Source of the DNA: a virus
Reading direction: 5' to 3' (one strand)
IMG/VR virus record: IMGVR_UViG_3300028048_000007
Location: 1 to 60,539 of that record
DNA length: 60,539 nt
The notes under the pieces were generated by a model. The model saw only the letters and a program-made list of their open reading frames with translations, was not told the origin of the DNA and made no database searches. This document shows positions 4,376 through 39,637 of the stretch, piece after piece (within the stretch, counting starts at the first letter, position 1; every line of letters starts with the position of its first letter). The position numbers were made by a program, and so were the translations under genes.

Positions 4376-5722
4376 TTACCTACCTCTAATACTATTATTC
4401 TTTCTCTCCTTAACATCAGCTACATAATAATCATCAAGTGCATACCATATAGCGGAAAGGGTGTGAGGGTCGATGTTAAACTCACTGTACTTTAAACTTC
4501 CATCGGGATTCTTTTTGTAACTCAAATCCCTACACTCACGAATAGTATTATGGCAATTGCTACTACAAATAATTCGCTTAAAGCGTTTTATCTTTTTGGT
4601 ATTTGCAATTCTACTTCCTTCTGTTTTCTTATCGCACTTCTTTAAACAAGGTCGCATTTGGAAACCCTGTTTACGATAATACTTGATTGTTTTAGGCTCT
4701 GCACAATCTGCACGAATAACTTCATCCTTAATACCTTTATCCCACTTTTGAAGTGCAATAGCGGTTTCATCATCGGTCATATGATTTCGGTAATACTCAT
4801 CATAAATGTATAACCATTTGTTAACATCATCAACTGCAACTTTAAGCACAGCATTGTAACTTGTTTCAAAACCGAAATCCATACCGACTCTATGGAAATT
4901 AGCAGGTACATTAAGTACAGCCTTATCAACCAATTTAGCAGACATAACTTCAAATTGAGGAAGTACACGAAGTCCAGTAGCACCGAACTGTCCTAATCTT
5001 GCAACAACCCAAAGTTCTTTATCATATGTTTTCATTTCATCCAAACGTCTTATATAAGCAGGTGGTAAGAATTGGTTATCATCACAAGTGCTATGGTGAT
5101 AGTAAACTCCGTTCTTCACCAATACTTTCTTCTTATACAAAACTTCGGGTTTAACAATAATGGTAGTATTTCCATCACTGTCAGTGTTCTCAAAGAACTG
5201 TTGGTAAACCCAGTTATTTTTACTTATAGGGTTACAGGTAAGTATGAAGTGCATACTGATACCATTTGTACGAATACGCCCTAATATTTCCAAGTAAGCA
5301 TCGAGGGAAACTTCTGAACATTCCTCTATCCATACAATACTTACACCGTTTAACGACTTTAGTTTTTCGGTACTATCCATACCTTTGAAGATTATTCTAC
5401 TTCCATTAGGAAATTTGAATTCAAGTGGAGCATTTTTAAAACACACTTTGGTCTTATGTTGTCTTACACCAACATCTGCAAGCAACCCCATGTCATCCAA
5501 AACCTGTTTAATTAAGTCGAATGTACTCTCTTTGTGTGTGTCGTATACATCTCTGAATACACACGCCTTTCTTTTCTCTGCAAACAGTTTCAGAATTATC
5601 TTTTGAACCGTACTGTGTGATTTACTACTACCATATCCACCAATTACCAAATACTTTTCATAATCCCAATCGAAGATGTAATTATCAAAAGCAGGATTGA
5701 TACACATTGTTGCTTTCGGCAT
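4376..5722 (-). CDS. terL: Terminase large subunit (PBSX/Terminase_3-like)
   Basis: Walker A GGYGSSKSH, Walker B IVWIEECSE, C-terminal nuclease region (GMDFGFE). Start moved to MPKATM (ATG 5720-5722) behind AAGGAGAGAG. Confidence 0.9.
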   Translation of the reverse strand: MPKATMCINPAFDNYIFDWDYEKYLVIGGYGSSKSHSTVQKIILKLFAEKRKACVFRDVYDTHKESTFDLIKQVLDDMGLLADVGVRQHKTKVCFKNAPLEFKFPNGSRIIFKGMDSTEKLKSLNGVSIVWIEECSEVSLDAYLEILGRIRTNGISMHFILTCNPISKNNWVYQQFFENTDSDGNTTIIVKPEVLYKKKVLVKNGVYYHHSTCDDNQFLPPAYIRRLDEMKTYDKELWVVARLGQFGATGLRVLPQFEVMSAKLVDKAVLNVPANFHRVGMDFGFETSYNAVLKVAVDDVNKWLYIYDEYYRNHMTDDETAIALQKWDKGIKDEVIRADCAEPKTIKYYRKQGFQMRPCLKKCDKKTEGSRIANTKKIKRFKRIICSSNCHNTIRECRDLSYKKNPDGSLKYSEFNIDPHTLSAIWYALDDYYVADVKERKNNSIRGR

Positions 5723-5753
5723 TTTACTCTCTCCTTTTTTATATAATAGCAAA

Positions 5754-6129: not shown

Positions 6130-6804
6130 TTACTCTTCACTTTCATCATCTTCCCAGTTATCCCAAAGTTCACTTTCTTCATCACTTAATTCATCTGAAT
6201 CATCACCACTTTGTTCTAACTGCTCTTTTGTGTATGTTACAGATTTGTTTATTACATCACCGTTTTCATCGTAAATTTCAACGTTCTCATCTTCATCGGT
6301 AACTTCTTCATCTTCATCGTAGATATCAATTTTCTGTTTATTTCCTCTTTGTATAGTAATAGTAACTTGACTATCATCGGGGTCAACTTCAACAATTTTA
6401 TCTCTATTAAGTTTCCAATCTTCAAATTTTCTGTTATTAAGCCAGAACATTGCGGCTTTGACATTCGGTGGAACTTCTTTTACGGTTGTTTCTTTCAACA
6501 TCTCAACCATTTCACCATTTACCATTTTCTTTCCTATGGTAACCTTAATCTCTTTCGTTTTATATCCTAATGCCGCTTTTAAAATAGCATTTTCAACTTG
6601 ATAATCTACAAGTTCTCTTGTTGTATTAATTGCTTCATCTATTTCAGCATATTTCTTTTGCCATTTTACGAGAGTGTTTACATTTATATTCATACGCTTT
6701 GCAATTTCTGCTTTACTAAATGTATCTCTCGACCAACTTCTTATTAATTCAAGTCCATCTTCTGTAAGCCAATAATCGACTTTACTTTCATTTATGTTTC
6801 CCAT
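6130..6804 (-). CDS. terS: Terminase small subunit (N-terminal HTH) with a strongly acidic C-terminal tail (..ELWDNWEDDESEE)
   Basis: 224-aa ORF. The segment ..TFSKAEIAKRMNINVNTLVKWQKKYAEIDEAI.. is typical of terS HTH domains; position upstream of terL. Confidence 0.7.
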   Translation of the reverse strand: MGNINESKVDYWLTEDGLELIRSWSRDTFSKAEIAKRMNINVNTLVKWQKKYAEIDEAINTTRELVDYQVENAILKAALGYKTKEIKVTIGKKMVNGEMVEMLKETTVKEVPPNVKAAMFWLNNRKFEDWKLNRDKIVEVDPDDSQVTITIQRGNKQKIDIYDEDEEVTDEDENVEIYDENGDVINKSVTYTKEQLEQSGDDSDELSDEESELWDNWEDDESEE

Positions 6805-6953: not shown

Positions 6954-7035
6954 TCACTTTGCTATGCTTTCATTCACTTCATTTCACATCACTTCTCATC
7001 TCACTCACGCTCACAGCACTTTGAATGACGCTCAC
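6954..7035. repeat. Phased TCAC(T) repeats upstream of terS (candidate terS-binding / pac-type region)
   Basis: TCAC at 6954, 6974, 6984, 6989, 7001, 7005, 7011 and 7032, i.e. largely on a ~10-bp register. Confidence 0.4.
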
Positions 7036-7253
7036 TTCAAATGGCTTTATATATGAAATGGGTGGAGGATTTCTGGGAGAGTAGTAGCGCACAAAAATTA
7101 AATAGCACCCATTATGATTGCCTATCCCCCACACACCTGTTATTATTTCATGCGTTATATATCGGGTGTTATTGTGGGGATTTGATAACAGATTTTATTT
7201 TTTATCGAGAGGCTGGCAACGTACCTATTCAATCACACTTATTATTTATTTTA

Positions 7254-7406
7254 TCACTCACTGTATAATATAACAGCTTTTATTATTCCATATCTTTTTA
7301 CAGTATTAAAGAAACACTTGTAATAAAAACATATACTTTTTAAATATCCCTTTAAACTACCATTACTTTTTCTACTTATTCTTTCATAGTCTATTATATG
7401 AAACAT
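7254..7406 (-). CDS. Possible small protein (50 aa)
   Basis: Hand translation MFHIIDYERISRK..AVILYSE; ATG 7404-7406 sits 8 nt after GGAGG; below the ORF-track cutoff. Confidence 0.35.
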   Translation of the reverse strand: MFHIIDYERISRKSNGSLKGYLKSICFYYKCFFNTVKRYGIIKAVILYSE

Positions 7407-7426
7407 ACTTTTAAACCTCCTATTTT

Positions 7427-7497
7427 GCCCCATATTTACATTTTATACTTTTAATGTATTTCTATACACTTATTATATTTCGGTGCAAATATGGGGC
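7427..7497 (-). repeat. 14-bp inverted repeat (GCCCCATATTTgCA / TGtAAATATGGGGC, one G.U on the coding strand) with a 43-nt loop, just downstream of 7509..7988
   Basis: Read by eye; no T-run follows, so not a classical terminator. Confidence 0.5.
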
Positions 7498-7508
7498 GTT
7501 TATGGTCT

Positions 7509-7988
7509 TTATTCATACCATTTATTAATATAATGGTTAATACTTGTATTTGCGAAAATAGTCTTTTTTGATAACGTGTTATAAGGATATATAAGGGCGA
7601 AAATATCATATAGATTATTAATGATAGTTTCTATATCATGTCTACAATTTGACATTGTATAGAAACAATATTCGGTATCATGAAAAGTTTCACCCATTGC
7701 ATTTATATAATCCGCTTTTTTCCAAGTATCAATACAAGCATGATAACGAATATATTTTCCATTTGGTTTGCACTCATATACAATCTTTTCAAGTGCTGTT
7801 ATAAGCTGATTAAGAATACTTTCATCTGATACTTTTTTATCTTTAGTTTTTGCGATTAAGTGATTAATACTCATATCAAATAATATTTTGCTGTTTTTAC
7901 GGTCATTTTTATAAAACAGTATATATGCACCGTTTGACTGGTAGGGCGTGTTATAAGTGTCTTTGTACAGGTTTCTATTTTCCGTCAT
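7509..7988 (-). CDS. Hypothetical protein (159 aa)
   Basis: ORF track; last gene of the early direction before the terS control region. Confidence 0.65.
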   Translation of the reverse strand: MTENRNLYKDTYNTPYQSNGAYILFYKNDRKNSKILFDMSINHLIAKTKDKKVSDESILNQLITALEKIVYECKPNGKYIRYHACIDTWKKADYINAMGETFHDTEYCFYTMSNCRHDIETIINNLYDIFALIYPYNTLSKKTIFANTSINHYINKWYE

Positions 7989-8096
7989 GTCGTTTTCCCT
8001 CCTGTTAAAAATCGTTAGCTGTTTTTAGCTGATTTTTTTAAATACAGTTTCATTATTCATTTACAAAACTTGTTATATATTGCGTGTTTGCCATTT

Positions 8097-8420
8097 TTAC
8101 GCCCTCCAATTTACTAAAAATCCGTTTATATCGGTATCAACTAATATTTCATCACGGCGTGTTTTTGAGTGATAAACAAGTATCAAATCATTATTTTCGT
8201 TGCGGTATAAATAGCCACATGTAAACATGAAACCATTAGCGGATATTATCTTGTATGCATATCCATTATTTTTAAACATCTCCGCTTTTATATCATTTTC
8301 AGCCGATATTTTATAATCACTACATTTTGTCTTGTATGCATCCACAACGTTATAAGTTTCACTGTTAAAAAATCTTTCATAAATGTTTCTGGCTGTTTTG
8401 TTTGTACTTGTTTTCATCAT
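8097..8420 (-). CDS. Hypothetical protein (107 aa)
   Basis: ORF track. Confidence 0.65.
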   Translation of the reverse strand: MMKTSTNKTARNIYERFFNSETYNVVDAYKTKCSDYKISAENDIKAEMFKNNGYAYKIISANGFMFTCGYLYRNENNDLILVYHSKTRRDEILVDTDINGFLVNWRA

Positions 8421-8439
8421 ATTGTTTTACCTCCTGTTT

Positions 8440-8619
8440 TCAACTCCGCTTTTCTACTACTCCGTTATTGTATCTGTATTCGTGACCGTTAACTTCAAAT
8501 AATACGTAGTTTCCGTTTCCATCACCCTCTAACAAAACTATGTCTTTTAAAGGTGCGGTAAAACCGTATTCATTTTTTAATACTATTTGTGCTAACTGTT
8601 TGAACTCTGTTTTTGTCAT
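8440..8619 (-). CDS. Small hypothetical protein (59 aa)
   Basis: Hand translation MTKTEFKQLAQIVLKNEYGF..; ATG 8617-8619 sits 8 nt after GGAGG; first gene behind the 8661-8689 promoter. Confidence 0.55.
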   Translation of the reverse strand: MTKTEFKQLAQIVLKNEYGFTAPLKDIVLLEGDGNGNYVLFEVNGHEYRYNNGVVEKRS

Positions 8620-8660
8620 GTTTAAAACCTCCGTTTAGTGTGGTTTGTTTTGTTGTGCTA

Positions 8661-8689
8661 ACTATATCAAATATATTTGTTGATTGCAA
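8661..8689 (-). promoter_or_regulatory. Sigma-A-type promoter (-35 TTGCAA, 17 nt, -10 TATAGT) with an AAAATATTTT UP-like tract
   Basis: Reverse complement reads TTGCAAtcaacaaatatatttgaTATAGT; member of the conserved promoter family. Confidence 0.6.
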
Positions 8690-9167
8690 CAACTTTTTAA
8701 AATATTTTTCAAAAATCTTTTTCTATTTTCCATTATTAGGAAGAAACGCACACAAAACAGATAAACACGGCATTTTTACATATATTGTTTAATATTGCAC
8801 AACGAAAATAATAAAACGTTGGTTAAGATATACAAAAACAATGATTTACAATAGATTTTTTCAAAATTTACAAAATATTAAAAGTTTGTTCGGTTTTGTC
8901 ATACCCTACAAACCGCATGGTTAAGCGATTTTGCCCATTAAGGGTCGAACAAAGACTTTTTCGATAAAGTTATCATTAAAAGGGTAAAATTCAAATTTGG
9001 GGCGTTTTTGAGCGTTTTAAGGGCATATCTAAAATGTCAAGAAAAATCGTAAAATTGACATATAGAAAAAATATCATTGTTTTTGGTTATTTTTAACAAG
9101 TGGTATTTTCTGGCACTTAAAACAGCTTATTTACAGAAAATAGATTAAATTGTTTTCAATTTGTTTT

Positions 9168-9234
9168 AATTGTGTAAAAATTTAAGTTTTTCCGTTCTCT
9201 GGTATTTTCGGGATATTTAAATTTTTACACAATT
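9168..9234. repeat. Perfect 18-bp inverted repeat AATTGTGTAAAAATTTAA / TTAAATTTTTACACAATT with a 31-nt spacer
   Basis: Arms 9168-9185 and 9217-9234 are exact reverse complements. Confidence 0.9.
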
Positions 9235-9367
9235 AATCAAATTGACTATACAATTCTCAAATATTGCTATTTTCCGTTTCTGGCATCCGATAAAATAAAA
9301 TATTTGCTGTTATGTTATTTTCTATCCCTGTTTTTAATAACAAACGGTATTTTATCGGGCATCCTGT

Positions 9368-9384
9368 AAATTGTCAGACAATTT
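9368..9384. promoter_or_regulatory. 17-bp palindrome AAATTGTC-A-GACAATTT (operator-like); same core as 14909-14923 and 15010-15024
   Basis: Self-complementary by inspection. Related half-sites ATTGTCAGA at 9400-9408 and 9460-9468, and ATTGTC at 9471-9476. Confidence 0.6.
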
Positions 9385-9403
9385 GCTCATTTTCGTTAAA
9401 TTG

Positions 9404-9417
9404 TCAGAATATTCTGA
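9404..9417. promoter_or_regulatory. 14-bp perfect palindrome TCAGAATATTCTGA overlapping an ATTGTCAGA half-site
   Basis: Self-complementary by inspection. Region 2 has the near-identical TCTGAATATTCTGA at 15035-15048. Confidence 0.5.
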
Positions 9418-9476
9418 AAACTCGGTGAATTGTACTCATTTTCACACACAATTATGCGAATTGTCAGAAAATTGTC

Positions 9477-9510
9477 GGGGCGGTCGGCGTGGGCGGTCGG
9501 GCGGCATCCG
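9477..9510. other. Isolated GC-rich island (GGGGCGGTCGGCGTGGGCGGTCGGGCGGCATCCG) containing GCGGTCGG twice
   Basis: Stands out by eye in an otherwise AT-rich non-coding region. Confidence 0.8.
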
Positions 9511-9753
9511 TTCTTCCTACGTACTTTCTTTTTACGTTGTTTCTGTATTCGCATTATGTCATATTCGCATTATGTCGTATAACGCTCAAATTCGGCTCAT
9601 TTTCGCATTTTGTACCATTAATGGTATATTTATATACCTACACAATAAAAACGCCATTTTGAGGCAAATTTGAGCGTTTTACGTATGCTTTATTACATAG
9701 ATATATAAATACAGCATTATTTATATACTTTTCATCGTTCCTGTACTGTTTTT

Positions 9754-9894
9754 AGTGTAGTAGGAAGAATTTTTAGTAGTAGGATGAATTTTGAAAAGTA
9801 GTAGGAGAAATTTTTCGTAGTAGACGGAATTTTGCACAGTAGGAGGAATTTTGAGTAGTAGAAGGAAAATTAAAGAGTAGTAAAAGGAATTTTT
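9754..9894. repeat. Tandem array of 7 imperfect 16-22-bp repeats, consensus AGTAGTAGGAGGAATTTT (iteron-like; every unit keeps a GGA core)
   Basis: Units start at 9754, 9775, 9797, 9817, 9838, 9854 and 9876. Confidence 0.9.
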
Positions 9895-9912
9895 AACATA
9901 TCCCAGAAACAA

Positions 9913-9940
9913 GGAAAAACGGCATTTACTGCCGTTTTCC
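9913..9940 (-). terminator. Rho-independent terminator after 9962..10384 (GGAAAACGGCA-gtaaa-TGCCGTTTTTCC, then T-rich)
   Basis: 11-bp GC-containing stem with one bulged A, followed by TTGTTTC on the coding strand. Confidence 0.75.
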
Positions 9941-9961
9941 TATTGGTATCTGTATTTACTT

Positions 9962-10384
9962 TTACTTTCTCTTTTTGTTGTGATTTTCCTTATAATACTT
10001 CATAGATTCGGGATAAAACAGATTGATTATATCTCCCAAACCTGCATTGAGAAATACCGCATATTTAATCATCTTTTCAATGTTAGGATTCTGTTTTCCC
10101 TGTAATACCTTTGTGGTATTTGCTATATCATCTCCAATAGCCTGTGCAAACTCTGATACAGTGTTATAACCGTATGCTTTCAGAAAATCTTTTCTTACTT
10201 CATACACTTTATCGGGAATTGCCTTTTTAACCGTCTTATTTGCCGTTTTAACAGGCTTTACGTTCTTTTTGGTACTTTTTACCGCTGTTGTCTTCTTTGT
10301 AGGCTTCTTGACCGTTTTAGCGGCTTTTACAGACTTATTTGCAGTTACCTTCTTTGTATTCTTTGTATTTGCTGTTTTTCTCAT
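9962..10384 (-). CDS. DNA-binding protein: Lys-rich histone-H1-like N-terminal repeats plus a C-terminal XRE-like HTH
   Basis: 140 aa. KKVTANKSVKAAKTVKKPTKKTTAVKSTKKNVKPVKTANKTVKKA, then ..VSEFAQAIGDDIANTTKVLQGKQNPNIEKMIKYAVFL.. Confidence 0.65.
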   Translation of the reverse strand: MRKTANTKNTKKVTANKSVKAAKTVKKPTKKTTAVKSTKKNVKPVKTANKTVKKAIPDKVYEVRKDFLKAYGYNTVSEFAQAIGDDIANTTKVLQGKQNPNIEKMIKYAVFLNAGLGDIINLFYPESMKYYKENHNKKRK

Positions 10385-10431
10385 TTATTTTTCCTCCATT
10401 TTGTTGTTTTTAAGTGTTTTATGTGTTTTGT

Positions 10432-11037
10432 TTAGCTTATTTCTGTTCTAACGTAGTTTACAAGTGCATATTCCAAACTACAACGAAAAACTGGATTATC
10501 TCTCAATTCTTTACAGTTTCTTACTATTGCAAGTTTAACTAAATCTAACTTTTCCGCTACTTCATCAAAAACCTGTTTACTAGCACTTATCTGTTTTTCG
10601 TAGTTCTCAATGTATTTCTTTTGCTTTTCTTTTTCTGATTCTATCTTTTCGATAATTTCATCAGTATTGAGTAAATAAGTTGTTCTCCAGAAACCTTCAC
10701 TACTTTTTAAATCCTTTATTCTTTCATCTTCTGGATTTTTAGCTTTCATGTCATCTACATACATATAAGCATCGAATTCGTAAGTGTTAAAATTTCCGTC
10801 ACTTGTGTATCCAGAAACTTGAAAAGTAGGATGATTATAATCGTTATATGATTTAATTATAATCTTTCCATTTACAAAAGTCTGGTTTTTGTTCTGAAAA
10901 TGCGTTCCGTCTTTCTTACGCTTTATTTCTACTTTTTCAAGTAATTCCAGATTGTTTTTATGATATTTTAAATCATCATTTAACTTTCTTACTATTTCTT
11001 CATAACCTTTTGTTACTTCAAAACTACAACTTGACAT
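10432..11037 (-). CDS. Hypothetical protein (201 aa), coiled-coil C-terminal half
   Basis: ORF track. Confidence 0.65.
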   Translation of the reverse strand: MSSCSFEVTKGYEEIVRKLNDDLKYHKNNLELLEKVEIKRKKDGTHFQNKNQTFVNGKIIIKSYNDYNHPTFQVSGYTSDGNFNTYEFDAYMYVDDMKAKNPEDERIKDLKSSEGFWRTTYLLNTDEIIEKIESEKEKQKKYIENYEKQISASKQVFDEVAEKLDLVKLAIVRNCKELRDNPVFRCSLEYALVNYVRTEIS

Positions 11038-11106
11038 TTTTCACCTCATTTCTGTTTGTGGTTAGTCTGAAAGACTCACAAACAATCATTTTTTGTTTAC
11101 AGTTAC

Positions 11107-11135
11107 ATTATACCAAACTATTTTACTAATTGCAA
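11107..11135 (-). promoter_or_regulatory. Sigma-A-type promoter (-35 TTGCAA, 17 nt, TGgTATAAT extended -10) overlapping the 3' end of 11126..11449
   Basis: Reverse complement reads TTGCAAttagtaaaatagtttggTATAAT. Confidence 0.55.
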
Positions 11136-11449
11136 TACTTTATTTTAATTATTTTGTCATCTTTAACAGCACTTGTATGGTTGTTATCCATCAATACGCT
11201 GTATAACTCTCCTGTGTGTATATCTCCGTCTTCTGCTATGTATTCAAATACATTTCCATTACTTGTGATAAACTCTACAAGGTAATTTTCTCCGTATTCC
11301 TCTACATTTGCAACTTTACAGGTTTCTGGATACAAAGATGTATTTCTATCCCATATAAAAGCTACAAACAATGCTATAAAACCTGTTAGCATGTAAATAC
11401 AACATTCTTTCCAAAACTGCTCATTTGTCATCTCTTTTTCATTATCCAT
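11126..11449 (-). CDS. Hypothetical membrane protein (107 aa, one TM); stops at TAG followed directly by TAA
   Basis: ORF track; the ..CCIYMLTGFIALFVAFIW.. hydrophobic segment. Confidence 0.65.
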   Translation of the reverse strand: MDNEKEMTNEQFWKECCIYMLTGFIALFVAFIWDRNTSLYPETCKVANVEEYGENYLVEFITSNGNVFEYIAEDGDIHTGELYSVLMDNNHTSAVKDDKIIKIKYCN

Positions 11450-11464
11450 TTATTATCCCTCCGT

Positions 11465-11761
11465 TTAATCAATTATTTCATCGGTTACAATTGCGTATTG
11501 TTCATACCCCCACAAATAACCTCTTTTATAGCTTTCTTCCATATAGTTTTCGTGTGTTTGTATGTTATGCAAAACCGCATCCCATTTAATACCTGCGTGA
11601 AACATACACTTTGCGAAAATATCTCTATCATACTGATATTTCGGTCTGATTCTTATTAAACTTTCAAACCCACATCCGCACCCATTTACAATCTCCGCAC
11701 ATACTGTATTTTTGTTATTTTCTACTACATAAAGTCTTGTTATTGTTTTTGCTACCTTCAT
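11465..11761 (-). CDS. Hypothetical protein (98 aa)
   Basis: ORF track; GGAGG RBS. Confidence 0.65.
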   Translation of the reverse strand: MKVAKTITRLYVVENNKNTVCAEIVNGCGCGFESLIRIRPKYQYDRDIFAKCMFHAGIKWDAVLHNIQTHENYMEESYKRGYLWGYEQYAIVTDEIID

Positions 11762-11812
11762 TCAATTTACCTCCATTTTGTTATTGTCAACACTTTTTTT
11801 TGAAAAATATTT

Positions 11813-12436
11813 TTACTGGTATATAGGACTTCCGTTTTCACTCCAACCTAAATATTCGTTTACTTCCCAGATATCTTTTATTTCATCATCTTCTACTTCG
11901 TAAAAGAAACTATATCCGTCATCCTCCATTTCTTTACAATACTTTTTAAAACAATCATTAAACATGTTTGCTATACACTCAATGGTATTATACGGTATAT
12001 CCCTATAATAGTTTCCCTCCATTTCCATTTCAACATAATATCTTATATCATCGGCTTTACTGATATAATAACAATAATCTCTGTTTTCACGGTTTATTAT
12101 TTCTATATCCTGCTTTTCCAGATAATCAGCAAAACGCTTTTCCTGCTTGTTAAATAACTCATTATAGTCTTCGTGCTTTTCTTTGATAAAACGGATTATA
12201 TCGAATATAGCAAAAGTTCCGTATATATTTAATCCGTCACCTTGACAAGATGAAAGACTATATTGTACTTCTAATTTGCTATTCGGAAAATCAACTTTTA
12301 ATGTGTCTTCTATACTTTCACTTAGCATTTCCGATTCACGAAAATCCTCACAATATTTCATTCTTGCGTTTTCTTTTGCTGTATCAGATAATTCGTCAAA
12401 ATCATAAACCTTTTCAATTCTTGTAATTTCCCTCAT
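11813..12436 (-). CDS. Hypothetical protein (207 aa)
   Basis: ORF track 11813..12451; start moved to MREITRIEKVY behind GGAGG. Confidence 0.65.
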   Translation of the reverse strand: MREITRIEKVYDFDELSDTAKENARMKYCEDFRESEMLSESIEDTLKVDFPNSKLEVQYSLSSCQGDGLNIYGTFAIFDIIRFIKEKHEDYNELFNKQEKRFADYLEKQDIEIINRENRDYCYYISKADDIRYYVEMEMEGNYYRDIPYNTIECIANMFNDCFKKYCKEMEDDGYSFFYEVEDDEIKDIWEVNEYLGWSENGSPIYQ

Positions 12437-12454
12437 CGTGTTTACCTCCAATTT

Positions 12455-12703
12455 TCAATCTACTTCTTTTGATGCAAACAAAAAATCATAATCATCCAAT
12501 AAATCATTTAAAATATACTTTCTTGTTATCCTGCTAAACTGTCCTTTAGGTTTCCCGATATAATTTCTAATCACTTTATCCTGTCCGTTTTCATCCTTTA
12601 TCCATTCCATATACTGTCTGATATAATAATGACCACAGTTTGTTCTTTTTACCTGTATAAACTTATTTTCATTTCTACGATTTCTATAAGTGTACAATCT
12701 CAT
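12455..12703 (-). CDS. Hypothetical protein (82 aa)
   Basis: ORF track 12455..12718; start moved to MRLYTYRN behind GGAGGG. Confidence 0.6.
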   Translation of the reverse strand: MRLYTYRNRRNENKFIQVKRTNCGHYYIRQYMEWIKDENGQDKVIRNYIGKPKGQFSRITRKYILNDLLDDYDFLFASKEVD

Positions 12704-12743
12704 TTTATTTCCCTCCATAGGTTTTATTTGTTTTGTTGTATTT

Positions 12744-12772
12744 AATATATCATACTATTTTGTTACTGTCAA
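12744..12772 (-). promoter_or_regulatory. Sigma-A-type promoter, family consensus copy (-35 TTGACA, 17 nt, -10 TATATT)
   Basis: Reverse complement reads TTGACAgtaacaaaatagtatgaTATATT, preceded by an A/T UP-like tract. Confidence 0.7.
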
Positions 12773-12791
12773 CAACTTTTTTTTATTTTTT

Positions 12792-13178
12792 TTAATTCGA
12801 CATTGATAAAACCCATTTGGACTTTTTCATTTCCTGCTTTGCTTTTCTTATCAGTTCTTTGTATCTCTTTATTTCGTCTTTGTATGCTTTCTTTTCCTCT
12901 TCTGTTGCAATTCCCATATACCAACTATATGTATTGATTCTTTCAGTGTAAAACTCTATGTCGTTTCTGTATTCTTCAATCCTTTTCTTTATTTCGTTTT
13001 CAAACTCAATCTGTTCTTCTGATTTGCTGTTATCAACTAATTTCTTACCTGTGTTGTAAATATCCTGCTTTGTGAGTTTATCGTTCTCCATATAAAGTGC
13101 TTCTAATGATTTATACACTCTGTAGTTATACTCTGTTTCCTTGCATCCTGTATTTTCAACAAATTCGCTGTACAACAT
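12792..13178 (-). CDS. Hypothetical protein (128 aa), Lys/Glu-rich helical
   Basis: ORF track. Confidence 0.65.
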   Translation of the reverse strand: MLYSEFVENTGCKETEYNYRVYKSLEALYMENDKLTKQDIYNTGKKLVDNSKSEEQIEFENEIKKRIEEYRNDIEFYTERINTYSWYMGIATEEEKKAYKDEIKRYKELIRKAKQEMKKSKWVLSMSN

Positions 13179-13257
13179 GTTTTCATCCTCCGTTTATCAT
13201 CTCTGTTTTAATGACTACGTTAGTTTGTTTTAAACTGTAATCATCTTTGTTGTACTC

Positions 13258-13286
13258 AATATATCATAGCGTTTTGTTGTTGTCAA
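13258..13286 (-). promoter_or_regulatory. Sigma-A-type promoter, family consensus copy (-35 TTGACA, 17 nt, -10 TATATT)
   Basis: Reverse complement reads TTGACAacaacaaaacgctatgaTATATT, preceded by AAAAATATTTTTAAAAAAG. Confidence 0.7.
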
Positions 13287-13429
13287 CTACTTTTTTAAAA
13301 ATATTTTTTATTTTTATTTTCCCTCTTTTTATCGGTCTTTGTTGTTCTTCCGTCACACGGTTTTACTCTTGTATTTTCTCCGCACACTTTAAAATAAATG
13401 CATCCTTTACAGGGATTTTTTACACTCAT

Positions 13430-13903
13430 TTATTTTTCCTCCATACCTTCAAACTTTATTTTCAGTTCCATTAAATTCCTGCGTATCTCTCCACAATGTG
13501 CATTTTGCTGTTCATAATATTCAACGTCATGTAGAAACTGTCTACAGAAACCAACAGCACTATTACAACTACCACAATTTGAAATATGATTCTTTAAATC
13601 ATCTAACAGCTTATCTAAACGTTTGTCGTTGTCTTTCTCTCTATAATCGTTACATTCCAACAGTTTATCAACACTCTTTATGTATTCATTATCCATTTGT
13701 TCTTTCTCCAGATATTCTTCATGCTGTTTTATCATCTTATTTGCATCTGCTATAGTTTCGGGGCATCCGATATAGTTACCGTCACAATATAATTTCCAAA
13801 CTTTTCGTATTCCCTTTGGAGGATATATTCTGGCACTCTTCCGTAAAACATACTTTGTACCTTTTGTTGCGTATAACTCTTTGTTTACTTTTTCAAGTTT
13901 CAT
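13430..13903 (-). CDS. Hypothetical Cys-rich protein (157 aa)
   Basis: ORF track; GGAGGGG RBS. Confidence 0.65.
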   Translation of the reverse strand: MKLEKVNKELYATKGTKYVLRKSARIYPPKGIRKVWKLYCDGNYIGCPETIADANKMIKQHEEYLEKEQMDNEYIKSVDKLLECNDYREKDNDKRLDKLLDDLKNHISNCGSCNSAVGFCRQFLHDVEYYEQQNAHCGEIRRNLMELKIKFEGMEEK

Positions 13904-13918
13904 TTTTCACCCCTCCAT

Positions 13919-14104
13919 TTACAATGTATCATCATAAATGTTTGCTAAATGATACAACAATGTTAATTGTGCTTTCTGCTGTGGTGTTTTATCTTTCATG
14001 TTGTACAATCTTACTATTTCACTTTCAATTTCTTCAATCAATCTTTCCGCACAATCAATCATTTTCTTTGTTGTATCTATTTGTTCTTTGATTTTCTTTT
14101 CCAT
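13919..14104 (-). CDS. Hypothetical protein (61 aa)
   Basis: ORF track; AGGAGG RBS. Confidence 0.55.
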   Translation of the reverse strand: MEKKIKEQIDTTKKMIDCAERLIEEIESEIVRLYNMKDKTPQQKAQLTLLYHLANIYDDTL

Positions 14105-14126
14105 TCCGTTTACCTCCTGTTTATTT

Positions 14127-14168
14127 ACAGGGATTATGGATAAACTGTATTAGTTTCATAATCCCTGT
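14127..14168 (-). repeat. Perfect 12-bp stem hairpin ACAGGGATTATG / CATAATCCCTGT (18-nt loop) between two genes
   Basis: Read by eye; no T-run, so an intercistronic structure rather than a clear terminator. Confidence 0.6.
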
Positions 14169-14179
14169 ACACCGTTTAT

Positions 14180-14596
14180 TTACTCTTTTACGTAGTAGTT
14201 TCCAACACAACCACCATGTTTTACACAATCCCATATATCAACGTTTTTACCGTTCTCAACAACTGACAAATGGTGTGCCATATTAATAATATAAGTGCCT
14301 GTTTTGTATTTGTCAACAAATTCTTTTACAGTATACTTTGTACCGTCAATATGTCGGGGTTGTGGCATTTTCTTCCACCCATACTTTTCCAGAATTGCTT
14401 CAAACGTTCTTTTATCATCCTTGCAATAGCCTGTTTCAATCTGTCTATATGCAATTTCCAAAACAATGTCATTGTATGGAACTCCTGTTGCATAACTGAT
14501 TGCACGATACACGCAATCACCTGTAATACGGTTATGCGGATTCTGGTTGTGATAATGGAATGTTTCTGTTTCGGGGTACTTTTCAGTTCTTTTCAT
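14180..14596 (-). CDS. Putative papain-fold (C39-like) cysteine peptidase
   Basis: 138 aa. Ordered GDCVYRAIS (Cys) .. MAHHLSVVENG (His) .. VDIWD (Asp), reminiscent of C39/NlpC-type triads (motif-level only). Confidence 0.4.
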   Translation of the reverse strand: MKRTEKYPETETFHYHNQNPHNRITGDCVYRAISYATGVPYNDIVLEIAYRQIETGYCKDDKRTFEAILEKYGWKKMPQPRHIDGTKYTVKEFVDKYKTGTYIINMAHHLSVVENGKNVDIWDCVKHGGCVGNYYVKE

Positions 14597-14684
14597 TTTG
14601 TCAACCTCTTTTCAATATTTTGTTTTCAATGTGCGGTTTGCAATTCTACCACCAACAACCTGTTAATGATACCTTGCAAGTATC

Positions 14685-14713
14685 ATATTACACCCACCTG
14701 TTGTTATTGTCAA
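14685..14713 (-). promoter_or_regulatory. Sigma-A-type promoter (-35 TTGACA, 17 nt, -10 TAATAT)
   Basis: Reverse complement reads TTGACAataacaacaggtgggtgTAATAT, with an A/T-rich UP-like tract at 14714-14750. Confidence 0.7.
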
Positions 14714-14908
14714 CAACTATTTTAAAAAATTTTCAAAAAGTTTTTTTCACGGAAATAAAATCTTGACATTGTATATCACAACAAAAGAAAATGCAACTTA
14801 AAATTTTCACCAAATTTTTCATTGGTTATTGTCAACTTTCCCATGTCTGACAATTTACAAATTTTTCGGTTTCTGTATTGACAATGGATTGAATTTTCTG
14901 ATAATCAG

Positions 14909-14923
14909 AATTGTCTGACAATT
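14909..14923. promoter_or_regulatory. 15-bp palindrome AATTGTC-T-GACAATT (operator-like), directly downstream of a plus-strand TTGACA/GATAAT promoter-like pair (14878-14905)
   Basis: Self-complementary by inspection. Confidence 0.6.
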
Positions 14924-15009
14924 AAATGTTATTTTACCGATTTTGGGATGGTTTTTAGACAATTTAAAAGAAACATGTGTGATTCATACACAACTCCGAA
15001 AGCTGTCTG

Positions 15010-15024
15010 AATTGTCTGACAATT
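15010..15024. promoter_or_regulatory. 15-bp palindrome AATTGTC-T-GACAATT (second exact copy in region 2)
   Basis: Self-complementary. Flanked by half-sites GTCTGA (15005-15010), GTCTGAATATTCTGACAATT (15034-15053), plus 14845-14855 and 14957-14964. Confidence 0.6.
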
Positions 15025-15190
15025 TGGTGAGTTGTCTGAATATTCTGACAATTCTGAAAATTCGGATTCGGTTTTGTACCCCATATACGTATACGCATAC
15101 ACACGTACATACGTACTTACTTATTTACTATATTATTTCGCATTATGTATACGCCACCACACGGTACACGTTACATGTGTTACACTCAAC

Positions 15191-15310
15191 AAATAAATAG
15201 AAAGTACATTCTGCGGATAAATTGATGTGATAAATACCAAAGGGGATTCTTTGTCATGGCAAAAACAAAGTGATTATTATGTTCTCACAGAATGTACTCT
15301 CTATTTATTT
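15191..15310. repeat. Long inverted repeat: 23-bp arms (22/23 complementary) around a 74-nt spacer; candidate structured RNA or cruciform
   Basis: 15191-15213 AAATAAATAGAaAGTACATTCTG versus 15288-15310 CAGAATGTACTcTCTATTTATTT. The spacer holds a small CTTTG..CAAAG hairpin. Confidence 0.85.
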
Positions 15311-15347
15311 ATTGTAATGCTTTTGTATTGTTCCACCAAGCTAATAC

Positions 15348-15400
15348 AGTAGTAGGAGGAATTTTGAGTAGTGGGAGTTTTTAGTAGTAAGAGGATTTTA
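15348..15400. repeat. Tandem array of 3 repeats of the same AGTAGTAGGAGGAATTTT family as 9754-9894
   Basis: AGTAGTAGGAGGAATTTTG / AGTAGTGGGAGTTTTT / AGTAGTAAGAGGATTTTA. Confidence 0.85.
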
Positions 15401-15420
15401 AACCATATAAATAAAACAAT

Positions 15421-15505
15421 GGGGAGATAGCCTTATTATTACCGATAAACGGTTACAAGGACTTACGCTCTCCCCAGATGAGGAAGGTGGGGTAAGTCAC
15501 CTTCC
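15421..15505 (-). terminator. Two consecutive hairpins after 15505..15846: GGAAGGTG-n8-CACCTTCC (15482-15505, includes the TAG stop) and GGGGAGA..TCTCCCC (15421-15475), then a T-rich run
   Basis: Read by eye; ATTGTTTTATTT follows the second stem on the coding strand. Confidence 0.65.
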
Positions 15506-15846
15506 TAAATCCCTATTTTATTTTCCAAATCATACAGGTAAATAATTGCTTGCTGAAAATCTTCTTTTCTTATCTCAATTGCTCCTGTATCATCGTTCTT
15601 ATGTGTAAATCTTCTCTTTGGTGTTACAATCTTACTCTTCTCTTTGATTATCTCATCTATAAAGTTATCTGCCACCTTATAAATAATAAATGCAACCAAA
15701 AATGCTAAACACTTAAGAACATCATCTATATCGGTAAAAAGTAATGTTGCTATAACTCCCAGAACAAACAATAAGTTGATTGCAACAATTACTGTTTTAA
15801 TTGAAAGAAGCTTTGCAAACTTTCTTTTTAATATTTTTGCTATCAT
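15505..15846 (-). CDS. Hypothetical membrane protein (113 aa, two TM); stop codon TAG
   Basis: ORF track; hydrophobic segments VIVAINLLFVLGVIATLLF and LAFLVAFIIY. Confidence 0.65.
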   Translation of the reverse strand: MIAKILKRKFAKLLSIKTVIVAINLLFVLGVIATLLFTDIDDVLKCLAFLVAFIIYKVADNFIDEIIKEKSKIVTPKRRFTHKNDDTGAIEIRKEDFQQAIIYLYDLENKIGI

Positions 15847-31488: not shown

Positions 31489-33045
31489 TTAATTTACCTC
31501 TCTACATAATAAAGTGCTGTTATATTTCGTTACTCTACTTATGTATTCCTTTTTATCGAATGTAGCCGCACCACATTCTTTTAACTTTGATAACACACCA
31601 ATGTTTACTGCACTTCCTTTAAAGTGTGTTCTATCGTAGAAATTATCATATGAAGTAAATATACCGTTCTTCTTTCTTTCTTCTACAATTTGAAGTGCCG
31701 CTTTTTCACCGATACCTTTTATATCAGAAAGACCTTGTTGTAAACAATATTCTCCTTCAACCTTTCTTATTCTTGTTTTAACATCAGAATAATTTATATG
31801 AGGAAGAAATACAACGTTTCCTGCTTTTGCCGCTAACACGCAACACTTATAATAAGTATCGTCATTTGGTGCATACTTTAATTTACCAAACCAGAAATGC
31901 AACGGATAATGTACCTTGTAAAACATTTCCTCTACAGCAAGTAGTGCATAACCAACTGCATGACCTTTGTTAAAACCATACATGTCGGTTGCTGAACTAA
32001 ATATCTGCTCCGCTTCATCTCGTTTAAAACCATTTGACATAGCACCCTTTACAAATATGTCATGAAGTTCTTTCTTTGTCTGATTAAACTTCTCACGCTT
32101 CTCTGGTGACATTGCTTTTGAACCATCCATTTTCATAACCTTATCTGCATCTGTCCATTCCATACCACCAAGATAAACACATATCTGTTGTACTTGCTCT
32201 TGATAAATAATTGTTCCGTATGTTTCTTTTGTATAATCATAATACAATAATTCTTTTGCAGTTTCGATATTGCTCTTATTATCTGCGTACTGTTCGGGCA
32301 TGTGTGTTGATAATGCGGCAGGTCTATTCATTGCATTTGCGGCTACAACATCATTGAAGTCTGTACAGTTAATATCAACCAACATGTTTCTAACAGTTTT
32401 CTTATCAAACTGAAATACGCCTTGCGTATCTCCTTTATGAAATGCTTCAAGCACATCTTTATCTTCAATTGCTTTGTCATAGTCAACAGTTACACCTGTA
32501 AGTTCTCTTAACTCACCAATCTCTTCCATTGTTTGAAGTCCAAGAATGTCAAACTTGATAACTCCAATTGCTTCAATGTCATTCAAATCATAATTGGTGT
32601 AAACGTTTCCTTCTTTATCCATTTTCAAAGCTGTATAATCAAGTATATCTCCACCTGTTACAGCAACACCTGCGGCATGTGTACCAATATATCTTACTTT
32701 CTGATACAACTTACTAAAATGAATAAATATGTTATCATACTCTTTGTTATACATCTGAATCTCTTTGTCTTCCAACATTGCATCCAAATCCAAATTGGAA
32801 TCAGAATCAAGATATTTATTACAAAGTGATTTAATCTGTTTTATTGTTCTTTCATTACTTGCTTTCTGTTCACCATCAACAGTTTTATCAGTAGGCAATC
32901 CACAAACCTTTGCTAAATCATTTATAAGGTTGTCTACTTTATACAGACCATAAGAAACTATTCTTGCTGTATGTCCTTCATATTTATTTATGATATACTC
33001 GATTACTTCATGTCTTCTTGCTGTTTCAAAATCAAGGTCAATATC
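31489..33045 (-). CDS. dnaE: DNA polymerase III alpha subunit (DnaE-type), exon 2
   Basis: Begins DIDLDFETARRHEVIEYI.. (the catalytic Asp motif) and continues with ..GTHAAGVAV.., ..KFDILGLQT.. The ATG listed at 33046-33048 is interpreted as the last intron codon (ends in G). Confidence 0.8.
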   Translation of the reverse strand, partial: DIDLDFETARRHEVIEYIINKYEGHTARIVSYGLYKVDNLINDLAKVCGLPTDKTVDGEQKASNERTIKQIKSLCNKYLDSDSNLDLDAMLEDKEIQMYNKEYDNIFIHFSKLYQKVRYIGTHAAGVAVTGGDILDYTALKMDKEGNVYTNYDLNDIEAIGVIKFDILGLQTMEEIGELRELTGVTVDYDKAIEDKDVLEAFHKGDTQGVFQFDKKTVRNMLVDINCTDFNDVVAANAMNRPAALSTHMPEQYADNKSNIETAKELLYYDYTKETYGTIIYQEQVQQICVYLGGMEWTDADKVMKMDGSKAMSPEKREKFNQTKKELHDIFVKGAMSNGFKRDEAEQIFSSATDMYGFNKGHAVGYALLAVEEMFYKVHYPLHFWFGKLKYAPNDDTYYKCCVLAAKAGNVVFLPHINYSDVKTRIRKVEGEYCLQQGLSDIKGIGEKAALQIVEERKKNGIFTSYDNFYDRTHFKGSAVNIGVLSKLKECGAATFDKKEYISRVTKYNSTLLCREVN

Positions 33046-39369: not shown

Positions 39370-39579
39370 TTTTTTTACTCCTTTTAAATAAATTGTTTAC
39401 ATTGTTTTTAGATTAATCCCCACAGCACCGTCATGGCACTGTGGAGCAATCTCTATATGAAGTTGTGAACACAATACCGAAACTCACATATATCTTACAC
39501 TGATTTTAACTCATTTCGTTTACACCTAAAAAGGTGCTTATTTACGATATTCTTGGTCGGTTATTTGTGCTATGAGAAT

Positions 39580-39608
39580 ATTCTATCCCTTTAACTTTTG
39601 TTTGTCAA
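39580..39608 (-). promoter_or_regulatory. Sigma-A-type promoter (-35 TTGACA, 17 nt, -10 TAGAAT) starting the replication-module operon; ~200-nt leader
   Basis: Reverse complement reads TTGACAaacaaaagttaaagggaTAGAAT, preceded by AAAAATATTTTGAAAATA. Confidence 0.7.
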
Positions 39609-39637
39609 CATATTTTCAAAATATTTTTAACAAATTT

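Follow-up and report, generated by a model that had tools for sequence, protein, structure and literature searches.

Comparison of the two non-coding control regions of the phage suggests that R2 (14597-15504), like its paralogue R1 (8620-9961), may be a DNA-level transcription boundary and regulatory module, and we put this forward tentatively as the best explanation. The window, i.e. the whole stretch of 60,539 nucleotides that was analysed (IMG/VR record IMGVR_UViG_3300028048_000007, positions 1-60,539), derives from an uncultured rumen phage, probably with a host of the family Lachnospiraceae. The transcription units around R1 and R2 are all on the minus strand, and the two regions bracket the early genes, a cassette of small genes. 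Read from 15505 to 14597, R2 would start with a pair of hairpins at which the upstream operon, for replication and nucleotide metabolism, terminates. These would be followed by a putative protein-binding set consisting of three AGTAGT iterons, an inverted repeat, one TTCGCATTATGT box, an alternating purine/pyrimidine (RY) tract and AT-rich DNA, and then by a cluster of 15-bp palindromic operators, partly in 9-bp register. The tandem sigma-A-type promoters P2 (14798-14770) and P1 (14713-14685) would then restart transcription into the small early genes. R1 would serve in the same way at the cassette's opposite end, ahead of the small genes leading into the terminase and structural block. The product of gene 9962-10384 may bind in both regions, setting the timing of the flanking promoters or switching them off, and may possibly bridge the two clusters, which are 5.6 kb apart, as lambda CI does with OL and OR; we infer both the pairing of this protein with the elements and the regulatory outcome. 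Coordinates are listed in Table 1.

Table 1. Position of the elements of R2 and R1 in the window
Feature	Position	Strand	Description
R2 module	14597-15504		intergenic, non-coding
Hairpin 1	15482-15505		stem GGAAGGTG/CACCTTCC, loop GGGTAAGT; seen in the sequence
Hairpin 2	15421-15475	-	long imperfect stem GGGGAGA...TCTCCCC
Tandem repeats	15348-15400		three units AGTAGT-RNGAGGA-TTTT, starting at 15348, 15367 and 15383
Inverted repeat	15187-15314		arms 15187-15213 and 15288-15314, 27 nt, 93% complementary
TTCGCATTATGT box, R2	15137-15148		100% conserved in all R2 orthologues
Alternating purine/pyrimidine tract	15082-15116		perfect over 35 nt, AT-rich DNA after it
Putative operator cluster	14842-15065		palindromes AATTGTCTGACAATT (14909-14923 and 15010-15024) and AATATTCTGACAATT (15039-15053); more half-sites
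Promoter-like site	14878-14905	+	TTGACA-16-GATAAT; -35 at 14878-14883, -10 at 14900-14905
P2, second upstream promoter-like site	14770-14798	-	TTGCAT-17-TACAAT
P1, family promoter	14685-14713	-	TTGACA-17-TAATAT; ahead of gene 14180-14596 and the early cassette
R1, paralogous module	8620-9961		non-coding
Candidate regulator gene	9962-10384	-	lysine-rich tail and XRE/Cro-type HTH domain; directly upstream of R1
R1 bidirectional terminator	9912-9940
R1 repeats	9757-9895		seven units
R1 promoter-like site	9602-9630	+	TTCGCA-17-TGgTATATT
TTCGCATTATGT box copies, R1	9548-9559, 9564-9575, 9602-9613		the last with one mismatch
R1 putative operators	9369-9473
R1 promoter	8689-8661	-

Searching the GenBank phages with the region by megablast and blastn gave zero matches, and the phage appears to belong to a family of uncultured rumen members without a close GenBank relative. 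Orthologues of R1 and R2 were found in at least eight related metagenomic phage lineages, each region being orthologous in at least five to eight of them, where the flanking proteins are merely 50-77% identical. R1 orthologues were available from L010, L226, L229, L230 and L252. The comparisons of R2 took in a 95%-identical fragment (L118), the closest relative (L225) and L195/L226, L228, L229, L230, L252, L253 and L254; 14 kb of a distant relative, L106, was also examined. Searches of IMG/VR found no close loci with protein 14180-14596 and RNase H as anchors, and with the exact repeat patterns GTAGTAGGAGGAATTTT and AGTAGNNGGAATTTTNNGTAGT only chance matches in coding DNA, the L010 contig excepted. 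The operator core, the box and the repeats are conserved at the level of coding DNA. Open reading frames called within the two regions (e.g. 9371-9673 and 14943-15200 on the plus strand, 9721-9912 on the minus strand) were dismissed as artefacts of the repeats.

The first-pass annotation had described R2 as a diverged paralogue of R1 with its elements in the same order, and this was borne out. Four +/+ blastn blocks occur in the same order in both regions (minus-strand promoter; palindromic operators; box; AGTAGT repeats with hairpins), and each region is kept as a separate orthologous module. Alignment of 9350-9950 with 14840-15420 gave z = 7.3 against dinucleotide shuffles, and only 3% of the block-order permutations scored as high. 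The similarity is indeed limited to the motif blocks, the intervening DNA being unaligned, but the collinearity is real. The motif anatomy of R2 agreed with the annotation to within 1 nt, and all three motif families (palindrome, box and AGTAGT repeat) are confined to R1 and R2 in the 60-kb genome, above chance. L106 has the operator block in inverted orientation and its sub-modules in a different order, an arrangement easier to reconcile with orientation-independent DNA sites than with one transcript.

Both hairpins at the upstream end of R2 are present, but they are not bidirectional as had been proposed: hairpin 2 has its T-rich tail solely on the minus strand, and hairpin 1 has no adjacent T-run on either. 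Hairpin 2 is directly followed on the minus strand by ATTGTTTTATTTAT and is thus likely to be the terminator of the upstream minus-strand operon; its outer stem, GGGAGA/TCTCCC, was found in all orthologues. Hairpin 1 directly adjoins the upstream gene, 15505-15846 on the minus strand, at its stop codon. Its stem shows compensatory pairs in the relatives (AAGAGGT/ACCTCTT in L195, GGGAATG/CATTCCC in L228 and AAGAGGTA/TACCTCTT in L229), and the loop, GGGGTAAGT or GGGGTAA(A)T, is kept despite these changes. A terminator scan of R2 reported none, nor was a plus-strand intrinsic terminator found there, in contrast to R1, where hairpin 9912-9940 is flanked by A- and T-runs on both sides.

The three AGTAGT units lie where they had been placed, and every R2 orthologue has exactly three. 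The seven units of R1 are their paralogues. In both regions each repeat has its orthologue at the corresponding position, and the number is fixed at three in R2 and seven in R1, which suggests a defined nucleoprotein complex. The units are spaced at 16, 19 or 22 nt and hence are not helix-phased. The GGA/SD-like character ascribed to the repeats did not hold up, GGAGG not being their conserved part and some units in relatives being without GGA; a reading of the repeats as an SD sponge was rejected because GGAGG is not conserved (AAGGAA in L010, GCGAGGA in L228). The box was confirmed in both regions, 9548-9559 exactly and two copies shifted by 1 nt from the annotated positions (to 15137-15148 and 9564-9575), and R1 carries two to four copies per lineage. 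What had been called CGTAC-rich DNA proved to be the purine/pyrimidine tract, the only alternating tract of at least 16 nt in the genome; equivalent RY-rich tracts were found in the R2 orthologues and in L106. The inverted repeat occurs at the same place with a different sequence in L228, L229, L230, L252, L253 and L254, and a weaker one was found in L195. Retention of structure with change of sequence, together with the conserved loop of hairpin 1, could indicate a role at the RNA level, on the minus strand if any.

The minus-strand family promoter P1 was found at the annotated position, which is conserved in 6/6 aligned R2 orthologues. P2 recurs in L195, L228, L229 and L230 as TTGyAT-16/17-TATAAT, and its presence on the minus strand accounts for the conserved plus-strand sequence TCTTGACATT. 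Scanning of all R2 orthologues found these two minus-strand sites conserved and no position-conserved plus-strand promoter-like site.

The operator cluster and the palindrome at 14909-14923 were also present as claimed. At up to two mismatches the palindrome AATTGTCWGACAATT has six matches in the genome, all in R1 or R2, with 0.47 expected. Distant orthologues share 64-69% identity over the operator core (14906-15065), a level similar to that of the flanking genes. The protein encoded at 9962-10384 gave only a weak match to Pfam HTH_26. Its AlphaFold2 model has a pLDDT above 90 over residues 60-135, and the top Foldseek matches in the PDB were nearly all XRE-family proteins (C.BclI, GraA/HigA, 434 Cro, SinR and ImmR), with weak E-values of 0.07-0.5. 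Sequence profile searches of the PDB with this protein found nothing, and the XRE domain was thus identified by fold comparison only. A homologue is encoded immediately upstream of R1 in L010, L226, L229 and L230. As in XRE/Cro systems, several palindromic operators of 14-20 bp go together with a linked XRE-HTH gene, and the binder of the operators is most likely a dimeric HTH regulator, for which the modelled protein is the best candidate. Some findings count against the DNA-module reading. The operators are not over the conserved promoters but upstream of them, by 130-350 bp in R2 and about 700 bp in R1, which gives no evidence of simple repression by occlusion; P1 and P2 are at least 130 bp from the nearest full palindrome, so that the overlap of operator and regulated promoter typical of XRE/Cro systems was not seen, and the only promoter-like site abutting a full palindrome is the non-conserved plus-strand one at 14878-14905. 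In L106, moreover, the operators are present and the XRE homologue was not found in the 14 kb examined. Of the elements, only the operators have a candidate binder, which leaves the AGTAGT repeats, the inverted repeat, the box and the RY tract to be accounted for.

This plus-strand site is central to an alternative put forward in the first-pass annotation, in which a repressible promoter at 14878-14905 drives a non-coding RNA of about 0.5 kb that crosses the operators, inverted repeat and repeat units and runs to the hairpins at 15421-15505, a proposal that now looks very doubtful. The site does exist, with 11/12 positions matching and a perfect palindrome beginning 4 nt past the -10 hexamer; it is the sole plus-strand site at 11/12 or better, and it lies in a region without open reading frames in which both strands fold better than shuffles. 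However, chance would give 1.7 sites of this quality on each strand, and by itself the match therefore has no significance. Apart from the window, only L118 and L225 retain the hexamers; they are lost, with the adjacent palindrome retained, in seven lineages (L195/L226, L228, L229, L230, L252, L253 and L254); the site is missing from 7/8 of the more diverged relatives. Segment 14841-14905 is among the least conserved of R2, with 29-52% identity versus 64-69% for the operator core. The missing plus-strand terminator, the A.C mismatches of the inverted repeat on the plus strand, the better folding on the minus strand (z -7.1 versus -3.9) of 15150-15520, which covers the inverted repeat and the end hairpins, and the variable GGAGG of the repeats likewise tell against such an RNA. 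We take the site to be a match that arose by chance or is specific to its lineage. Nor is it the only plausible plus-strand promoter, since R1 holds a better conserved candidate at 9602-9630, with invariant hexamers and 17-nt spacing and a variable spacer in the window, L010, L229, L230 and L252, at a constant 300-312 nt from the terminator. RNAalifold found no conserved fold (consensus energy -2.9 kcal/mol) in the part of R1 with the highest conservation, which is the 5′ domain of the putative plus-strand RNA. A tRNA-like reading of 8883-8954 was rejected because its stem C is not kept in L229 and L230. With Rfam 15 at the gathering score the whole window gave only tRNA-Gln, and the hairpin matches that a permissive scan of 8400-15700 picked up were all at chance level. 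The plus-strand repeats do resemble CsrB/RsmZ in having GGA-containing units about 19 nt apart, in R1 also in lying between a conserved promoter-like site and a terminator. Unlike in CsrB/RsmZ, the units are outside hairpin loops, the C-free tract of R2 is predicted to be unstructured, GGA is missing from some relatives' units, and R2 has neither a conserved promoter nor a plus-strand terminator, nor an Rfam match. The idea is thereby weakened, a lineage-specific transcript could still show, and we regard a lone antisense-oriented non-coding RNA gene in R2 as a negative outcome, to be carried forward only with transcript data. An RNA element on the minus strand is a different proposal, and an unlikely one: read-through past weak hairpins would yield G-free, C-rich repeats (rut-like or a phage RNA-binding site) and then a long hairpin, together making up a zone of reinforced termination, processing or antitermination before the next promoters. 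The repeats do follow directly after the hairpins in R1, R2 and all orthologues, with minus-strand C:G counts of 38:4 in R1 and 18:0 in R2 (zero C on the plus strand of the R2 tract), and relatives have only weak T-tails at hairpin 2. Both arm mismatches of the inverted repeat in the window, and most of its non-Watson-Crick positions across relatives, are A.C on the plus strand and hence G.U on the minus strand, and hairpin 1 combines a covarying stem with a conserved loop. On the other hand, plain C-richness needs neither positional conservation nor a fixed repeat number, strand-biased mutation could yield the G.U asymmetry, and the operators, the box and the RY tract are left unexplained.

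Two further readings also treat the elements as DNA sites. We regard as unlikely that R1 and R2 are cis sites for DNA replication, packaging or entry, such as an iteron origin, a terminal-repeat boundary with early genes or an injection stop. Direct repeats of 16-22 bp do lie beside a long inverted repeat, AT-rich DNA and an RY tract, two direct-oriented copies flank the small-gene cassette with strong sigma-A promoters, and several related contigs break in or beside such regions. Assembly forks at the repeats would account for the breaks just as well, however, and contig ends gave no support to a terminal-repeat model, the L010 contig ending outside R1 and R2 and the other breaks being explicable as repeat-induced forks; the window itself, to which a contig in the read set SRR8442993 is identical, is a circular assembly with a 127-nt overlap, which carries no information on termini. 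Iterons of 19 bp are known from the P1- and F-type replicons and the lambda origin, and in P1 and F two arrays flank a gene. The present repeats are like them in being direct, of about 19 bp, in two arrays (seven and three copies) and near AT-rich DNA, and differ in their uneven spacing, which lacks helical phasing, and in the lack of an initiator gene, either between the arrays or next to them. The number of DnaA boxes is at chance level, the replication module is at about 31-41 kb, at least 16 kb away, and the detrended cumulative GC skew, which is confounded by module boundaries, is lowest, as is usual at an origin, at about 39.2 kb and highest at about 11 kb. Decidedly unlikely, in our view, is that the operator arrays are docking sites for a CodY-like host global regulator instead of a phage protein, which would couple early and late promoters to host nutrition. 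The reason for considering this alternative is that close matches to the CodY box are confined, genome-wide, to R1 and R2. Overlapping CodY sites are offset by 9 nt, and the operator units are in a 9-nt register (TCTGAAAAT) across 15001-15065. The CodY box is a 15-bp palindrome, AATTTTCWGAAAATT, often in overlapping sites, a binding mode that has been proposed and modelled and was reported in B. subtilis operators by Wray & Fisher 2011 (PMC5314169). At up to two mismatches to this consensus, 10/10 matches were in R1 or R2, and at up to three the total was 29 versus 15.5 expected. Dense arrays of the same units also occupy intergenic DNA in unrelated phage contigs, with no common proteins in the stretches examined, which points towards a host factor, and a 20-bp palindrome was found mainly in Lachnospiraceae genomes (13/21 matches). 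Yet the palindromes depart from the consensus symmetrically, with G at position 5 and C at position 11, which suggests a specificity other than that of CodY. The chromosomal copies lie inside GC-rich palindromic repeats or, at a single locus, within a few hundred bases of a match to a group II intron, and not upstream of typical CodY-regulon genes, and the conserved phage XRE protein is available as a candidate binder. In the virulent phage phi29, Spo0A boxes, which are sites of a host global regulator, are clustered in the control regions. The present sites are similar in that they resemble a host global-regulator consensus and are clustered only in non-coding control regions; unlike those of phi29, they are putative sites and depart symmetrically from the CodY consensus. 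If they did bind such a factor, the nutritional state of the host would gate the early and late promoters of virulent phages that are unrelated to one another.

For the DNA-level boundary module, the closest known arrangement is that of phage lambda, in which OL and OR are paralogous operator clusters bound by the HTH repressor CI and bridged by looping. Similarly, the window has two diverged multi-operator regions a few kb apart that flank a small gene cassette, with palindromic operators of about 15-17 bp and an XRE/Cro-type HTH gene beside one region. Unlike in lambda, the two regions are direct-oriented with all transcription running one way, the operators are off the conserved promoters, and each region has in addition iterons, an RY tract, a box and a long inverted repeat that lambda lacks; the products scanned, which cover the annotated part of the genome, included no integrase or lysogeny function.

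The combination of three- and seven-unit iterons, inverted repeat, 12-bp box, RY tract and CodY-box-like operators has not been described together before, and the module yields testable cis-elements and a candidate regulator, gp9962-10384. If it works as proposed, two paralogous boundary elements would insulate and time the early-gene cassette, and this would be the control logic of the phage family.

The first and last 127 nucleotides of the window are exactly identical (1-127 and 60413-60539); the window is thus a complete, circularly assembled phage genome with 60,412 unique bases. Its G + C content is about 33%, essentially all genes are carried on the minus strand, and besides the terminases a split DNA polymerase III alpha, primase, RecA, ThyX and RNase H are encoded. 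The polymerase is divided into two minus-strand ORFs (31489-35002), and the 160-aa ORF between them might be an insertion, for example a homing endonuclease. No nucleotide match was found among GenBank phages. The relatives are metagenomic contigs in IMG/VR, JGI, ENA and Logan (individual sequence records are given L numbers here), and Logan contig SRR8442993_44781 holds a stretch identical to the window. Since 13 of the 21 genome matches of the 20-bp operator palindrome of region 2 are from Lachnospiraceae, this family is, on sequence grounds, the likely host. In chromosomes of Lachnospiraceae MAGs the palindrome, TTGTCWGAATATTCWGACAA, is found in single copy: some copies, in GC-rich palindromes (L232, L238, L239, L241 and L247), are central in ~30-bp GC-rich inverted repeats adjoining thiS/thiF-like genes; others (L234, L235, L236, L240 and L243) have a conserved non-coding context, and in L243 a group II intron domain match lies a few hundred bases away.

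In region 2 (14597-15504), all elements listed by the first-pass annotation, including the operator cluster, were found, with coordinates right to within 1 nt. The DNA described as CGTAC-rich is present, and its exact nature is a perfect alternating purine/pyrimidine (RY) tract. Palindrome, box and repeat unit are all confined to region 2 and region 1 (8620-9961), and are commoner than in shuffles. Comparison of the two regions by blastn revealed four blocks on the same strand and in the same order. The proposed paralogy was supported by the alignment that the first-pass annotation had suggested (9350-9950 against 14840-15420), with z = 7.3 against dinucleotide shuffles and a score reached in no more than 3% of permutations of the block order; the intervening DNA gave no alignment. 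Ordered blocks and a significant score, with unalignable DNA in between, indicate that the paralogy is real but modular. The left part of region 1 (8850-9110) has no counterpart in region 2. It contains stretches of 30-45 nt, for example ATATAGAAAAAATATCATTGTTTTTGGTTATTTTTAACAA, that are identical or nearly so between lineages with proteins ~50-60% identical, and in which no ORF, conserved promoter or convincing conserved fold was found.

Positions of features in the window
Feature	Position	Strand	Remark
Large terminase	4376-5752		
Small terminase	6130-6804		
Pol III alpha ORF	31489-33048	-	Remaining alpha domain, finger and HhH
ORF between the pol III alpha parts	33169-33651		160 aa
Pol III alpha ORF	33770-35002	-	PHP and start of alpha domain
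Family promoter P1	14713-14685	-	
RY tract	15082-15116		Perfect, 35 nt; unique in genome
TTCGCATTATGT box in region 2	15137-15148		
Inverted repeat	15187-15213 / 15288-15314		27 nt
AGTAGT repeats	15348-15400		n = 3
Hairpin 2 of region 2	15421-15475		
Hairpin 1 of region 2	15482-15505		
Block 1	8677-8723 = 14701-14748		Region 1 = region 2, blastn
Block 2	9369-9425 = 15010-15065		Region 1 = region 2, blastn
Block 3	9518-9559 = 15110-15148		Region 1 = region 2, blastn
Block 4	9742-9912 = 15313-15419		Region 1 = region 2, blastn

Using the 113-aa gene upstream of region 2 and the repeat patterns as anchors, orthologues of region 2 were recovered from L225, L195/L226, L228, L229, L230, L252, L253 and L254, plus the 95%-identical fragment L118; those of region 1 were found in L010, L226, L229, L230 and L252. 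The paralogous regions are conserved: their architecture is constant in all lineages despite identities of just 50-77% between flanking proteins, and the number of repeat units is fixed at three in each region 2 and seven in each region 1, single units of both being orthologous by position across lineages. Identity to distant relatives is 100% for the box, 68-73% for the repeats and 64-69% for the operator core, compared with 72-74% for the RNase H coding sequence and 64-68% for that of the gene upstream of region 2. The sequence of the long inverted repeat has been replaced in relatives, where a long inverted repeat is still formed. The stem of hairpin 1 shows compensatory pair changes in relatives and its loop is retained (15490-15497 and orthologues; it reads GGGGTAAGT in plus-strand and ACUUACCCC in sense orientation). 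Base pairing between the C-run of this loop and the GGGGAGA arm of the next hairpin is conceivable, and the two hairpins possibly form an alternative-structure switch. In L106, which is distantly related (51% identity in TerL), there is one region of this kind only (7000-7830). It comprises five repeats of ~20-24 nt that bear TAGTAAGAGG when read in the gene-sense direction, a small ORF, the operator block in inverted copy and an RY tract, after which come four strong promoters set close together (7808-8260).

A repressible plus-strand promoter in region 2 (14878-14905), giving a ~0.5-kb non-coding RNA that ends at 15421-15505, had been proposed earlier. TTGACA-16-GATAAT is indeed the sole plus-strand site with at least 11 of 12 matches, but 1.7 are expected per strand. 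The segment containing it (14841-14905) is among the least conserved parts of region 2, with 29-52% identity to distant relatives. Its hexamers are kept in L118 and L225 only; L195 has CATACA and GATTGT, the remaining lineages have no equivalent, and the adjoining palindrome is retained in lineages that lost the hexamers. A positional scan of all region 2 orthologues found no conserved plus-strand promoter; two minus-strand sites are conserved, P1 and an upstream TTGyAT-16/17-TAyAAT (14798-14770). The end hairpins are not the bidirectional terminators they were taken for, as the T-rich tail of hairpin 2 is confined to the minus strand and hairpin 1 adjoins no T-run on either strand; therefore a plus-strand transcript would continue antisense to the gene at 15505-15846. 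Most non-Watson-Crick positions in the inverted-repeat stem are A.C on the plus strand and thus G.U on the minus strand, and a hand count over the arms gave plus versus minus wobbles of 0 versus 2 in the window, ~2 versus 4 in the L228 clade and 1 versus 7 in L254. The interval 15150-15520 folds better on the minus strand (z -7.1 versus -3.9 on plus); such an asymmetry could also arise from strand-biased mutation. No Rfam family was matched. The plus-strand promoter and non-coding RNA in region 2 were weakened by every test applied and are not supported.

Nor does region 2 hold the only plausible plus-strand promoter: judged by sequence, a better candidate for a plus-strand RNA unit lies in region 1 (9602-9945). 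In the five sequences compared (the window, L010, L229, L230 and L252), its promoter-like site TTCGCA-17-TGgTATATT has invariant hexamers and 17-nt spacing with a variable spacer, the classic pattern of conservation. It is constantly located 300-312 nt upstream of a hairpin (9912-9940) that is flanked on either side by A- and T-runs; the interval up to this terminator encloses exactly the seven position-orthologous repeats. The 5′ part of the putative RNA has no conserved fold, and the -35 element coincides with the recurring box.

The reading that best fits the evidence, and that we put forward tentatively, is a DNA-level boundary and control module. Region 2 precedes a small-gene cassette (14596 down to 9962) in which the majority of the strong family promoters are located; region 1 follows this cassette and precedes the genes leading to the terminases. 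An RNA element on the minus (sense) strand seems unlikely: the repeats come directly after the hairpins, their sense strand is nearly free of G (C:G 38:4 and 18:0), and such C-rich, G-poor repeats resemble rut sites, as might be expected where termination is reinforced, but the position-specific conservation of the units would be left unexplained. Iterons, an inverted repeat and AT-rich DNA are compatible with a replication or packaging site, a role that we regard as rather improbable, since DnaA boxes are at chance level only, the replication genes are distant, and the detrended GC-skew minimum, confounded by module boundaries, is at ~39 kb, away from both regions. Contig breaks near such regions are equally well explained as assembly forks. 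L195 and L009, contigs from one sample, have ends no more than 6 nt apart in region 1 (9702-9708), and L016 and L017 start at an operator cluster; these are probably forks arising from the repeats or, less probably, physical ends. The maximum (~10,970, ~11.0 kb) and minimum (~39,200) of the detrended cumulative skew are about half a genome apart; the skew range was reached in 0 of 1000 block permutations, and the extremes coincide with module boundaries. A candidate replication origin is the non-coding gap at 39370-39637, which coincides with the minimum and belongs to the replication module; it contains 11-nt repeats and, at 39608-39580, a strong promoter on the minus strand.

Another reading that seems improbable is that the operator arrays are sites for a CodY-like host factor. 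With at most two mismatches, the CodY consensus is matched 10 times in the genome, always inside region 1 or 2, and the operator units are set in a 9-nt register, the offset of overlapping CodY sites. Dense arrays of operator units are also carried by the unrelated phage contigs L058, L090, L028 and L074, in which no proteins common to the window phage were found in the stretches fetched. Overlapping CodY sites have been described (PMC5314169, citing Wray & Fisher 2011). The palindromes, however, depart symmetrically from the CodY consensus, and their chromosomal copies are not at typical CodY-regulon promoters. In L058 (1-2143), L090, L028 and L074, all from IMG/VR, intergenic DNA is filled with long 9-bp-phased arrays of AATATTCNG/AATTGTCNG units, at up to 6.5 half-sites per kb, upstream of promoter-like sites.

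The best candidate for an operator-binding protein is the product of gene 9962-10384, the last of the cassette, which is directly upstream of region 1 in the window, L010, L226, L229 and L230. Its highly conserved C-terminal domain, modelled with pLDDT >90, resembles XRE/Cro-type HTH proteins, with weak Foldseek E-values (0.07-0.5). Such proteins typically bind palindromes of operator size as dimers, which would suit the operators here.

In a DNA-level boundary and control module, read in the sense direction, the hairpins would end the upstream operon, fixed arrays of putative binding sites would come next, and tandem sigma-A promoters would restart transcription. One weak point of this reading is that the operators lie at least 130 bp from the conserved promoters. 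Two operator clusters 5.6 kb apart recall the paired clusters of lambda OL/OR and invite a model in which they would be bridged in the same way. A module of the region 1/region 2 type unites elements of known kinds in a combination not described before.
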